NCBI GenBank assembly: GCA_965233585.1 | Contig: CBDDTI010000729.1 | Span: 72,080 to 136,079 of the forward strand | Origin: a bacterium | GTDB taxonomy: Bacteria > SAR324 > NAC60-12 | Direction of reading: 5' to 3' | DNA length: 64,000 bases | In this document: positions 27,794 to 31,150 of the stretch, one piece after another | Layout of the letters: each line of letters begins with the position of its first letter | Position numbering within the stretch: the stretch's first letter is position 1 | Notes under the pieces: model-generated | Told to the model about the DNA's origin: nothing | The model's database searches: none | The model's input: the letters and a program-made list of their open reading frames with translations, nothing else | Translations under genes and position numbers: made by a program

Positions 27794-29825
27794 TTTTCAA
27801 CAAACCATGACACCTGAAGCCACCTTAAAGAGAGTAGAAACTCTTAGAAAAAGACTCTTTGAGATACAAACACGATATTACACCTCACTTTCTTTCTCAA
27901 TGCAAGAGTATGTCACACTTTTGCAGGAATTACAAACTCTTGAAGAGACCTTCCCCACTTTAAAAACTGCCTATTCTCCCAACACCAGATTACAGGTTTC
28001 AGAAGTCAAAAAGTTTCCAACTGTGAGACACTCGCCTCCTATGTTGAGCTTGAGCAATCGCTATTCATGGGAAGAAGTCAAAGACTGGCAAAACAAGATT
28101 GTCCGAGACCTGCAAAAAGAAGAACAAGGCATGGAGCTGGAGTATTATTGTGAGCTAAAAATTGATGGGCTTGCTGTCAGTGTCATTTATGAAGAAGGAA
28201 GTCTTGTGCAAGCGGCAACTAGAGGTGATGGGACACAAGGAGATGACATCACTGCTAATCTTAAAACTATTGCTGAACTGCCTCTAACATTAAGTGAACC
28301 TGTCAACTTGCATGCCAGAGGAGAAGTCTATCTGACCCATGAACACTTTGAAAAGCTGAATCAAACGATGCAAAAGCAAGGCTTGCCTCTTTTCAAAAAC
28401 CCCAGAAATGCTGCATCAGGTTCATTGCGTTTACAAGATGCCGCAGAAGTGAGCAGTCGTCATTTAAGCCTCTTTTTATATTCGGTGGTGGATTCGTCCC
28501 TGCCTTCAATGCACACTCACAGTGAACATCTTGAGGCTCTTCAACAGCTGGGATTGCCCATTAATCCCATTTTTGCAACATTCCAAGATTTAGATGAGGC
28601 TCATCAATTTTGTAGCAAATGGGAGCAAGAGAGGCATTCACTGCCTTATGACATTGATGGCATTGTCATCAAACTGAATCACTACCGACACCATGACATG
28701 CTTGGCTCAAGTGCCAAATCTCCTCATTGGGCAACTGCTTATAAGCTCAAAGCAGAACAGGTGTCATCACAGTTGCTAGACATAGAAGTAGGAGTAGGGC
28801 GTACAGGAGTTTTGACGCCTGTCGCGATTTTAAAGCCGACCCTTCTCAATCAGACCACTGTCTCGCGTGCAACCCTTCACAATTACACACAGATTGAAAA
28901 GTTTGATCTCCATCTTGGGGATACTGTCATGCTAGAAAAAGGAGGTGAGATTATCCCAAAAATTGTAGGTGTGATAAGGGAAAAACGTCCCGCAAAAGCC
29001 CAAAAAATTTATCCACCTGCAAGCTGTCCTTCGTGTCAAAGTCTTGCTGTTTTAGTGGGTGTAGAATGGCGTTGTCTCAATTCAGAATGTCTGAACAAAA
29101 AAATTGAACAGGTGGCACATTTTGTCTCTCGTAAGGCGATGGACATTGACCACGTTGGAGATGCTTTGATTAAGCAACTTTTTGAAAGTCATTTAATCCA
29201 AGACCCTGCTGACCTTTATTCACTTCGTACAGAACAACTTGTGCAACTGGAAAAAATCGCTGAAACTTCTGCCAATAACGTCATCAATGCCATTCAATCT
29301 TCCAAAAAACGTCCCCTCCATGCCTTCATTTTTGCATTAGGCATTCCCTCTATTGGTGAAAAAACGGCTTTCATTCTTGCCCAAAAGTTTCTTTCTCTCA
29401 ACCAACTGCAAACTGCAGAACAAGACGAACTTTGCAACCTTGAAAACATTGAACAAAAAACTGCACAAGAAATTAAACGTTTCTTTCAAAATCCAGCCAA
29501 TCAACAACTGATTGAAAAATTGAAACATCATGGTTTAAATCCGCAGGTTCAGATGATACAAACCCAGACCATTGAGGGAGTGACAGGCAAGACATTTGTG
29601 CTGACAGGTGCATTGACCGAACCCCGCCATGTTTGGCAACAACGGCTTGAACAATATGGAGCCAAAGTCACAAACACGGTTTCCAAAAAAACAGACTATG
29701 TCATTGTGGGAGAAAATGCAGGGTCAAAGCAGGCTAAGGCAGAAAAACTAGGCATTCCCACTTTAAAAGAAGACACCATCTCTCAGTGGCTGACCCTACC
29801 TGATTGCCTTCAATTTCCTGCTTGA
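27783..29825 (+). CDS. ligA: NAD-dependent DNA ligase (start may be ATG 27807)
   Basis: [26 protein letters not shown]4 zinc finger, HhH, BRCT. Confidence 0.96.
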
Positions 29826-29850
29826 CACCTGTCAAGCAGTGTGCTAACCT
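29822..29850 (+). promoter_or_regulatory. Sigma70-type promoter for RNA unit 1
   Basis: TTGACA-17 nt-TAACCT, 7 nt before the unit; palindrome GCTTGACA/TGTCAAGC overlaps the -35. Confidence 0.7.
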
Positions 29851-29857
29851 TCTTTTC

Positions 29858-29944
29858 CATCAGGTAGTGAGTGATGCAAAGGCGCCAGGGGTTAATGATA
29901 TTAACGCCGATATGAAGAGTTAACCGACTTCCCGCTACCTGATG
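29858..29944 (+). ncRNA. Structured tRNA-like small RNA, unit 1
   Basis: 12-bp closing stem CATCAGGTAGTG/CGCTACCTGATG; 87-nt repeat of 30087-30173. Confidence 0.65.
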
Positions 29945-29967
29945 CCCTTCAATTTTCCGCTTAATCG

Positions 29968-29996
29968 TTGACAAGATTTCTTCAGTGTTCTACACT
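29968..29996 (+). promoter_or_regulatory. Sigma70-type promoter upstream of the intervening hairpin and RNA unit 2
   Basis: TTGACA-17 nt-TACACT. Confidence 0.7.
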
Positions 29997-30086
29997 GACT
30001 CCTAGCTTCTCTGTTGTAGATGCAATCAAGATAATCAGGTTTTGGCTTGTGGCTTCAGTGCCGCCTGACTTGGTTATCTTCTTTTT

Positions 30087-30173
30087 CATCAGGTAGTGAG
30101 TGATGCAAAGGCGCCAGGGCGAGATAATTTCAAAGCCGATATTGGGAACTAACCGACCCTCCGCTACCTGATG
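30087..30173 (+). ncRNA. Structured tRNA-like small RNA, unit 2
   Basis: Same scaffold as unit 1 with variable 15-nt, 7-nt and 3-nt segments; overlaps the stop of the antisense ORF. Confidence 0.65.
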
Positions 30174-30472
30174 CTCTTTAAAACACCTTCTTTTAATTTA
30201 TCCTCAATATCTTTTAAATCTACCTTAAAAGCTGTTTTAACGCTTTGGGAAAAGACCTCTTTCTCTTTAAAATTAGGGTGAATGATCACTTTAATCACTT
30301 TGTCATTTTTGAGCTTTCTGATGAACAATAGATTGCTATCTTTTTTTTGCAAATAGACTGCATCAGGGTTGGCAAGAATGTCAGGCAGCTGCATCCATTC
30401 TTCAGGAGACAAGGCATTTTGAGACTTGGCATGACGTGCTGCTTTTGTGCCAGAAAACAAAGAAGATTCCAA
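30164..30472 (-). CDS. PBECR (Barnase/EndoU/ColicinE5-D/RelE-like) nuclease-fold protein, possibly 5'-truncated by IS1
   Basis: RH...LSPEEWMQLPDILANPDAVY...NLLF...KVII...VKTAFKV resembles MuF C-terminal PBECR domains; frame open upstream to 30517. Confidence 0.6.
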   Translation of the reverse strand: MESSLFSGTKAARHAKSQNALSPEEWMQLPDILANPDAVYLQKKDSNLLFIRKLKNDKVIKVIIHPNFKEKEVFSQSVKTAFKVDLKDIEDKLKEGVLKSIR

Positions 30473-30509
30473 GACAATAGGCTCATCAAGAACACACCCC
30501 GTCCCGTTG

Positions 30510-31150
30510 GGCAGTGTTCACTTGGTGTTGCTATTGGATGTAAGAGTGAATTTGAGGAATGGGGATGAGAAGTTGTCATCATTGTGGGAGTCAGACTTAC
30601 ATCAAGAATGGAAGTTGCAAAGGAGTGCAGAGATATGTTTGCAAATCATGTGGGAGGTCGTTCAGTTCAAATGGGTTGAGAATCCCACTAGAGACGAAGC
30701 GTCAAGCTTTAGAAATGTATGTCAATAGTGTAGGCATCAGAAAGATAGATCGTTTTGTAAAAAGCCAAAGAGTAGCTGTTTGGACAGCCTATTCTCGTCA
30801 AGAACAATGTGTGATTGCCTTTGTGATAGGCAAAGGATTAGCAGCAGCAAAGCAGCTGTATGCACTAGTCAAAGCACAACGAGCTAGAATTGAAACGATT
30901 TATACAGATGCCAACTCATGCTATCAAGTGGCATTTGCTCAATGACAGATTCCAGAGAACCATGAAATCGGTAAAAAAAGACTCATCTCATTGAATCTTC
31001 TAATTCTTCCATCAGAGATAACCTAGCTCGTTTTATGAGAAAATCAAAACGACATTCTAAAACTTTGGACATGCTGGAACACTCTCTCAAACTCTTCTTT
31101 CACTATAAAAGACTTGAAAAATATCATGCCAACAACAAGTGAACACTCCG
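30510..31150 (+). mobile_element. Degenerate IS1-family element
   Basis: Terminal IRs GGCAGTGTTCACTTGGTGTTG and CAACAACAAGTGAACACTCCG; InsA zinc ribbon (CHHC...QRYVCKSC) joined through an internal deletion to InsB (VWTAY, YTDANSCY), then a stop; no target duplication seen. Confidence 0.88.

Follow-up and report, generated by a model that had tools for sequence, protein, structure and literature searches.

A truncated MuF gene facing two structured repeats

Between the DNA ligase gene ligA and an IS1-family insertion element, a 64-kb stretch of a SAR324 bacterial genome (lineage NAC60-12; contig CBDDTI010000729.1, positions 72 080 to 136 079; hereafter the window, in whose own numbering all coordinates are given) carries two copies of an 87-nt structured element that converge on the end of a phage gene fragment. 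The features run in the order ligA (27783–29825, + strand), which encodes an NAD-dependent DNA ligase (Pfam DNA_ligase_aden, 280 bits, with OB, HHH and BRCT domains), then the two elements, unit 1 (29858–29944) and unit 2 (30087–30173), both on the + strand, then the 3' stump of a MuF gene (phage minor head protein and DNA pilot; 30164–30517, − strand) and finally the insertion element (30513–31147, + strand). An analysis of the letters alone (the original prediction) had described the units as an array of promoter-driven, tRNA-like RNAs antisense to a PBECR-like nuclease. The whole arrangement is a remnant of the head module of a Mu-like prophage, in which the C-terminal domain of MuF was severed by the insertion element and two putative cloverleaf small-RNA genes in tandem converge on the stump and overlap its stop.

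The open reading frame (ORF) listed for the stump is 102 aa long and begins at a TTG (30472). Its frame remains open for 15 codons further, up to a stop inside the inverted end of the insertion element, so that 117 codons remain from the 3' end of this Mu-like prophage gene. The ORF scores 38.9 bits against Pfam MuF_C (PF18819; cut-off 27.6), in agreement with the PBECR-like assignment made earlier, while PBECR3 (24.0 bits, cut-off 30) and PBECR2 (23.1 bits, cut-off 27.1) both fall short of their cut-offs. An exhaustive profile-free search of 1.84 billion representative proteins returned 79 relatives. The closest, P0002 (422 aa, 65% identity), aligns over its residues 311–422, ending at its last residue, with query residues 9–117, and the alignment thus begins upstream of the nominal TTG start. 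P0002 has the architecture Phage_Mu_F plus MuF_C and matches PHROG 220 ('minor head protein and DNA pilot'); this architecture and alignment identify the ORF as what is left, at the 3' end, of a MuF gene of about 420 codons and not as an intact stand-alone toxin. Among the tblastn matches listed for family queries, none was a significant N-terminal MuF piece elsewhere in the window.

Judged from its sequence, the stump carries a complete MuF_C/PBECR domain, predicted to be of RNase type. A K-x-x-R-H motif (K25, R28, H29) is present, and these residues are at least 90% conserved in 75 sequences. The AlphaFold2 model built on that 75-sequence alignment (pLDDT 91) consists of helices followed by strands. 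Foldseek gave no match in the PDB at E ≤ 0.001 (best E 0.09, TM 0.35–0.52), and its top ranks were held by RelE, HigB, YoeB, BrnT and CdiA-CT toxins, a fold comparison that is suggestive only. MuF-C has been defined as a PBECR domain that is inactive in phage Mu, whereas its active orthologues were predicted to be RNases packaged in the virion, with mRNA or CRISPR RNA rather than tRNA as the suggested targets (Iyer et al., 2017, PMC5512222).

The insertion element stands in place of the first ∼300 codons of the MuF gene. It has 18-nt inverted ends and an ORF that matches the IS1 transposase model at 71.3 bits, below the full-length cut-off of 100, with a Zn-binding domain above its own cut-off; the transposase ORF is internally shortened, to 128 aa. 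No clean target duplication was seen around the element at this locus, which suggests that the rest of the prophage was removed by an adjacent deletion.

Copies, extent and fold of the units

Both 87-nt units lie where they had been placed. Their 33-nt 5' block occurs exactly twice in the window (0 expected from 100 shuffles), and an ungapped comparison of the two gives 71 identical positions out of 87. The 16 that differ all belong to three segments that had already been marked as variable, leaving the scaffold identical at 62 of 62 positions, so the description of a fixed scaffold with divergent segments is confirmed. The repeat extends beyond the unit limits to 111 nt (29842–29952 and 30071–30181), with differences at 6 of the 24 flanking positions; outside it, ungapped identity is only 3–7 in 20. 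A partial third copy (29796–29836, + strand) contains the last 9–10 nt of a unit followed by a 27-nt tail, which carries the −35 box of unit 1. This copy is 76% identical to 29935–29975, a tail similarity matched by none of 500 shuffles, and it supplies the final ten codons of ligA (29796–29825). The term 'array' thus holds for two copies, and beyond these there is only the fragment.

Unit 2 overlaps the ORF by 10 nt, the stop codon at 30164–30166 lying within the unit, as had been noticed. The last 10 nt of the unit complement the last two codons and the stop (I-R-stop). An I/V-R-stop C-terminus is common to P0002, P0004, P0005, the Campylobacter protein and the window ORF, and the 3' half of the unit's closing stem is the complement of these codons. 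Unit 1, now without an adjoining gene, therefore still carries them.

The minimum-energy fold of both units is a four-way junction with a 12-bp closing stem and three hairpins (z −3.8 and −2.9). The closing stem is formed by 12-nt inverted repeats at the termini, paired with one G-U, and the third hairpin (P4) has a 10-nt loop. Three G-U pairs in the fold are compatible with the + strand only, although the two strands fold almost equally well (−29.4/−26.6 and −27.7/−26.8 kcal/mol). In P4, two A-U pairs of one unit are G-C pairs in the other (positions 58/73 and 59/72); with two unit sequences only, such compensatory changes are suggestive. The absence of differences in the scaffold (0/62) compared with the flanks (6/24) is significant (Fisher p 0.0003), and divergence is higher in the two variable hairpin segments (16 of 25 positions) than in the flanks (p 0.01). 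As far as sequence comparison can tell, such a pattern agrees with a functional, structured element whose core is constrained, and not with two decaying repeat copies, and the perfect conservation of the scaffold suggests that the RNAs are still under selection. In these respects the units resemble structured RNA genes on the strand opposite to the nuclease ORF, as originally proposed.

The strongly divergent segments on a constant scaffold had raised the idea of guide-like RNAs, whose 15-nt segments would program the nuclease against targets. We find this scarcely credible. Matches and complements of the 15-nt segments in the window are at chance level (3 against 1.55 expected, and 2 against 3.98 expected), the segment of unit 1 pairs with itself as a hairpin, guide use by BECR-fold RNases is not known from the material available in PMC5512222 and a 2026 BECR preprint, and the related elements described below are tRNA-shaped. 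Variable hairpin stems are the simpler reading of the segments.

Several smaller observations concern the sequences around the units. The 10-mer at the unit 5' end (CATCAGGTAG) has three further + strand occurrences, at 14381, 27515 and 42622, two of them within genes; the count exceeds the prediction of a uniform model, and no partner repeat lies close to the extra copies. Read on the minus strand, repeat copies A and B end in '..KLKAIR*' and '..KLKGIR*', resembling the C-terminus of the MuF_C family, which is suggestive only. A longer remnant of a second MuF gene end after unit 1 was considered and rejected: copies A and B share only a 10-mer and a 17-nt tail (0/500 shuffles), and the similarity of copy B to the 3' end of the ORF is not significant (323/500 shuffles). 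The LigA tail also gave weak + strand tblastn matches to several MuF_C proteins (W..LPD.L..P; E 0.4–9), which we take as chance.

Promoter-like sites and hairpins

All promoter calls reported here, in the window and elsewhere, are consensus matches. Literal TTGACA-N17-TAnnnT strings occur five times in the window against 1.0 expected, a count reached by 1 of 100 shuffles. One such site (TTGACA-17-TAACCT, 9/12; 29822–29850, + strand) has a −10 box that ends 7 nt before unit 1, and a second (TTGACA-17-TACACT, 10/12; 29968–29996, + strand) lies 90 nt upstream of unit 2. The claim that each unit follows a promoter of this type therefore stands only in part: both strings exist, but under a stricter sigma-70 scan the 29968 site passes and the 29822 site fails, and a hairpin with a U-run separates the 29968 site from unit 2. 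That scan, applied to a 1.2-kb stretch, found four sites where 1.9 ± 1.3 were expected.

Just past the ligA stop is a perfect 10-bp inverted repeat (29820–29841; −14.2 kcal/mol, z −4.5). It contains the TTGACA of the unit 1 promoter, and this box at 29822 doubles as one arm of the hairpin. A 14-bp hairpin with a trailing U-run (30028–30086, + strand; z −3.9) immediately precedes unit 2. It was not called by the terminator scan, but transcripts started at the 29968 promoter could end there. A separate transcript of ∼85 nt (30003–30086, + strand) could form from that promoter and would end before unit 2.

A reading that dispenses with RNA genes makes the units cis-acting structures serving the convergent ligA and MuF genes, as bidirectional terminators or stabilisers of mRNA 3' ends that were locally duplicated. 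Convergent genes do flank the units, there is overlap between the closing stem and the MuF stop, both strands fold nearly equally and a hairpin directly follows the ligA stop. The terminator scan, however, found no intrinsic terminator at 29500–30700, no U-run follows the closing stem of the units on either strand, and a terminator would not need anything as elaborate as a four-way junction whose core is invariant. The promoter-like sites moreover point into the units, and the counterparts in Escherichia coli and Pasteurella (see below) derive from tRNAs and show canonical T loops when read on the antisense strand. We consider the cis-acting explanation improbable.

Searches for the units as a known or dispersed element

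The units do not correspond to any element that we could recognise by sequence. At gathering thresholds, Rfam found only two true tRNAs in the whole window. ARAGORN called the same two real tRNAs, both elsewhere, and nothing at the units. Relaxing the Rfam search of the locus to E ≤ 10 yielded no tRNA match and nothing relevant on the units. The description 'tRNA-like' is thus apt for the four-way-junction shape, but the units go unrecognised by ARAGORN and by the Rfam tRNA models. Integron attC sites, retron msr/msd, IS110 bridge RNAs, shufflon inversion sites and self-cleaving ribozymes were rejected as identities: matching end motifs, a nearby reverse transcriptase or recombinase gene and an Rfam match were all lacking.

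Nor did copies appear elsewhere. No further unit was found in the window by searches allowing up to three mismatches, by nhmmer (best other match E 5.5) or by blastn-short, and blastn of the units against plasmid and phage collections gave no match. A pattern scan for the three scaffold blocks in one genome for each of 185 579 species, which did not recover the window's own genome and would miss more diverged copies, found nine loci, about the chance expectation and none with the scaffold. A protein search with a spurious 54-aa ORF across unit 1, used as a proxy for metagenome copies, found nothing.

These searches bear on the possibility that the units are copies of a small, non-autonomous element, either mobile or repetitive, of the type of miniature inverted-repeat transposable elements (MITEs) or repetitive extragenic palindromes, lying beside the stump by chance in a region rich in mobile DNA. 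Terminal inverted repeats of 12 nt are of MITE type, a fragment copy lies within the end of ligA, the IS1-family element and other repeat families are neighbours, and the 10-mer of the unit end recurs three more times in the window. Against this, neither the window, the genome scan nor the plasmid and phage collections yielded dispersed copies, no target duplication flanking the units is visible at the locus, and the differences between the units are confined to two hairpins and partly compensatory instead of scattered. Of the original concern that the units might match a MITE or terminator family, only the MITE-type ends survive, with no dispersed copies, target duplication or terminator beside them, and we regard a chance mobile element as decidedly improbable.

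Antisense cloverleaves after MuF in other Mu-like prophages

To place the locus among its relatives, we assembled a comparison set of 24 MuF loci. A tblastn search with the ORF found no phage match and one plasmid match, in a Mu-like prophage on a Thiodictyon plasmid (35% identity); the Thiodictyon C-domain in turn matched only itself. The 23 further loci, from phages, plasmids and E. coli genomes, were gathered with P0002 and the E. coli C-domain as queries. The set consists of distant relatives of the window locus. All 24 were scanned with Rfam in E-value mode.

In six of the 24 loci, a cloverleaf of 72–96 nt lies directly past the MuF stop on the opposite strand, starting 0–5 nt after the stop or overlapping it by 4 nt. 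Three of the six (E. coli, Pmp9 and Thiodictyon) are statistically supported and tRNA-derived. In the E. coli prophage (L015/L016), the element starts 2 nt after the MuF stop, antisense, and exceeds the Rfam tRNA cut-off (31 bits against 29). RefSeq annotates it as 'tRNA-OTHER' between the MuF and gpG genes (L016 2653–2732, minus strand), and the locus is found in 169 of 5426 complete E. coli genomes. Pasteurella phage Pmp9 (L025) has a homologous antisense element directly after its MuF stop, and 10 of 24 predicted pairs are preserved between the two by changes on both sides. In Thiodictyon (L010), the 112-nt gap after the MuF stop holds an antisense element that Rfam scores as tRNA-like with E 0.005 (25.7 bits, short of the gathering threshold); R1, a model made from the elements of E. 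coli and Pmp9, recovers it at E 1e-4. The tRNA ancestry of the elements is confirmed because the same model also recovers a true tRNA of the window.

The other three are weaker cases. Campylobacter coli (L030) has an antisense cloverleaf fold that overlaps the MuF stop by 4 nt and scores 12.2 bits (E 0.19) with a further model, R2; in Haemophilus phage SuMu (L019), a similar antisense fold at the MuF stop scores 11.7 bits with R2. The element of Pasteurella phage AFS-2018a (L027), also antisense and at the MuF stop, was identified by fold only, as a clean cloverleaf with a UUCGAAU loop and no model match. Among the remaining loci, those of Mannheimia, Rhizobium, Azospirillum and RcapMu have structured or degenerate gaps after MuF that we could not classify, and twelve have no space for an element, as MuF there abuts or overlaps the gene that follows.

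The loop of the middle arm is 4–5 nt in the three supported elements and 3–7 nt overall when the weaker cases are included, in a non-tRNA register, and ARAGORN called no element in L010–L015. Because the middle arm lacks a 7-nt anticodon loop in tRNA register and ARAGORN makes no call, the MuF-adjacent cloverleaves are not decoding tRNAs. The supported E. coli and Pasteurella elements have canonical T loops on the antisense strand. In four of the six loci (L015, L025, L027 and L019), a sigma-70-type site scoring 9/12 ends 7–14 nt before the cloverleaf. When 5000 windows of 60 nt were drawn at random from these sequences, just 1.5% reached that score. The corresponding sites are weak in Thiodictyon (6/12) and Campylobacter (7/12).

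Where the MuF C-terminal domain is present and the locus annotated, the next gene after MuF is gpG in 12 of 16 cases. That no protein antitoxin adjoins the window ORF had been taken as an argument for an RNA partner, an argument that falls away, as such absence is normal for virion head proteins. No published description of the antisense-cloverleaf arrangement and no published function for the E. coli 'tRNA-OTHER' element were found in the literature searched (full texts, with few subscription journals and no supplements).

Cloverleaves and the catalytic helix

The C-domains of 15 comparison loci were aligned with those of the window ORF, P0002 and P0004, and the other loci were read individually. 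Eleven loci keep the catalytic helix in some form, and six of these have a cloverleaf; of the 13 in which the helix is deleted (seven) or the domain is absent or unrelated (six), none has one (inclusive test, 6/11 against 0/13, p 0.003). The clearest contrast falls within a single clade. The C-domain of the E. coli prophage is 41–44% identical to those of Mu, D108 and SfMu, and these three phages are without the helix segment, without a gap after MuF and without the RNA. Such recurrence of a promoter-driven, tRNA-shaped RNA convergent on the MuF-C gene in distant Mu-like prophages makes a functional partnership plausible, and we infer that RNAs of this class work with the nuclease.

Do the window's units belong to this class?

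By anatomy the units belong with the MuF-adjacent cloverleaves, though not by sequence. They share position, strand, overlap with the stop, size, the four-way junction and a short-looped middle hairpin, and unit 1 also shares the geometry of its promoter-like site with L015, L025, L027 and L019. Nearest in layout is the AFS-2018a element, in which the closing stem is followed, in the same succession as in the units, by hairpins with a tetraloop and a triloop, a U/A-rich junction and a third hairpin; neither this element nor the units are recognised by models R1–R3, which were built from the tRNA-derived elements. The E. coli 'tRNA-OTHER' element offers the most instructive comparison. Like the units, it is a four-way junction at the MuF stop, on the strand opposite to the gene, and has a long closing stem and a short-looped middle arm; it measures ∼80 nt and lies directly past the stop. 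A sigma-70-type promoter-like site ends a few nucleotides upstream of it, as before unit 1, and the MuF protein beside it has an intact catalytic-type helix in its C-terminal domain. It is, however, a single copy and clearly tRNA-derived (canonical T arm, D-arm motifs), whereas the window has two units whose sequence shows no tRNA signature, with a closing stem of 12 bp and a loop of 10 nt in the third hairpin. On balance we tentatively interpret the units as a diverged and duplicated version of a MuF-partnered tRNA-mimic RNA, a possibility that we take seriously while holding it as somewhat less than an even prospect.

A number of observations weigh against this interpretation, and we bring them together here. 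With filters off, models R1 and R3 gave no meaningful match to the units (R1 aligns the closing stem only, at 2.6 bits), a unit-profile nhmmer search over 25 comparison loci found nothing (best E 0.83), and no Rfam tRNA model matched the units at E ≤ 10. At the place homologous to the unit 1 promoter, unit 2 has a site of only 6/12. No Shine-Dalgarno-like sequence precedes the TTG start of the ORF, which together with the truncation of the gene means that any partnership at the window locus may be a relic. In the comparison set, the count restricted to the three supported elements (3/11 against 0/13) is not significant (p 0.08), the loci are not phylogenetically independent, and three loci, two from Ralstonia and that of Azospirillum, have the helix motif without a cloverleaf. 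Finally, Thiodictyon has a second weak tRNA-like match, antisense and directly after gpG (L010 3972–4059, minus strand; R2 10.4 bits, E 0.63), so that MuF may not be the only gene with such an element; the minimum-energy fold of this second match is no clean cloverleaf.

The best hit of the unit-profile search is recorded here for its own sake: a 12-mer (AUGCAAAGGCGC) shared between the first hairpin of the units and the gap between gpG and the protease gene in the E. coli prophage (L015 3070–3106, minus strand; nhmmer E 0.83), which we take as chance.

Some of the same observations feed a broader alternative, in which the phage cloverleaves, the units included, have nothing to do with MuF-C and are instead late-operon processing or termination signals, decoys against tRNA-targeting defences or relics of captured tRNAs, found after MuF only because the head module offers few other intergenic gaps. 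Phages are known to carry tRNA genes and decoys against anticodon nucleases, and the Thiodictyon match after gpG, the three helix-motif loci that lack an element and the non-significant strict count all speak in favour of this explanation. It must also account for an element that in each case found lies against the MuF stop or overlaps it, for Rfam tRNA-type matches that occur across the 24 loci only at the MuF stop (the second Thiodictyon match comes from R2), for the absence of the element from each of the 13 loci that lack the helix or the domain, and for the loss of helix and RNA together between the E. coli prophage and Mu. We judge it unlikely, but a serious contender.

A proposed role for the RNA, and its relation to known systems

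If the units and the phage cloverleaves are MuF-partnered RNAs, their most likely role would be that of a tRNA mimic occupying the MuF-C RNase as a pseudo-substrate that the enzyme cannot cut, a role to which a tRNA shape without a proper anticodon loop would be suited. We advance direct binding of this kind with considerable doubt, as a minority possibility. The cloverleaf transcript may also read antisense into the end of the nuclease-coding gene. By either route the enzyme would be kept harmless in cells carrying the prophage, as by an RNA antitoxin or an immunity factor. In its full form, the proposal is that Mu-like phages with a live MuF RNase also carry an adjoining, convergent gene for a tRNA mimic, whose anticodon arm is truncated and which acts as antitoxin or immunity factor for the virion-delivered enzyme, guarding the lysogen from its own RNase and from those of superinfecting relatives, and that the window RNA lost its tRNA identity, was duplicated and diverged in two stems. 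We put this forward as a speculative scenario that is, taken as a whole, rather unlikely. The divergence of the two unit stems could reflect different nuclease specificities. With its MuF gene truncated, the window system itself is a relic.

Comparison with known systems sets out what would be new in this arrangement. ToxIN-like type III toxin–antitoxin (TA) systems have an RNA that neutralises an RNase and is encoded as tandem repeats of ∼36 nt, upstream of the toxin gene on the same strand, from which the toxin excises it. The window resembles these in having a proposed RNase-neutralising RNA encoded adjacent as tandem repeats. Its units are, in contrast, 87-nt cloverleaves downstream of the ORF and convergent with it, and the toxin fold differs; the type III geometry is thus absent from the locus. 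In type I TA systems with 3' overlap, a small convergent transcript overlaps the 3' end of the gene for the harmful protein, which is a small membrane peptide. The units have the same convergent 3' overlap, but barring read-through this is just 10 nt, the toxin is no small membrane peptide, and the conserved cloverleaf suggests recognition by shape.

MuF polymorphic toxins of temperate phages combine a MuF N-terminal domain with a variable toxic C-terminal domain (Jamet et al., 2017, PMC5576092) and are described with downstream immunity proteins (PMC5576092; 2026 BECR preprint). In the loci studied here, by contrast, MuF is followed by gpG, a morphogenesis gene, and the sole extra element is the RNA-like cloverleaf. 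Within MuF-C/PBECR (PF18819), the window ORF is a member by its Pfam score, its conserved K, R and H residues and a closest relative with MuF plus MuF-C; what sets it apart is that an insertion element has severed the domain from the N-terminal MuF part. The portions of the account of this family that bear on MuF-C make no mention of a partner RNA (PMC5512222).

Other features of the neighbourhood

Beyond the insertion element, other repeats are densely nested at 31150–31620, among them direct repeats at 93-nt spacing and three hairpin copies of the type ATTCCGTG-TCAAG-CACGGAAT; they bear no relation to the units. Upstream of ligA, a weak 6S RNA match (27330–27399, + strand; 19.4 bits, E 0.1, below the gathering threshold of 46.4) may be a diverged ssrS gene. 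Just before it is a 95-aa ORF (26988–27275), presumably ZapA-like.

Significance

As a decayed relic, the window locus is of small local importance, and the interest of the finding lies with the family to which its domain belongs. MuF-C/PBECR domains are predicted RNases that are packaged in the virion and injected into the host. If the partnership proposed here is true, it suggests both a class of target for these enzymes (tRNA-like shapes) and a means of self-protection (an RNA pseudo-substrate). It would add to the types of TA system a shape-mimic RNA inhibitor, directed at a BECR-fold nuclease, and it would explain a gene that RefSeq labels only as 'tRNA-OTHER' in those E. coli genomes that carry it.

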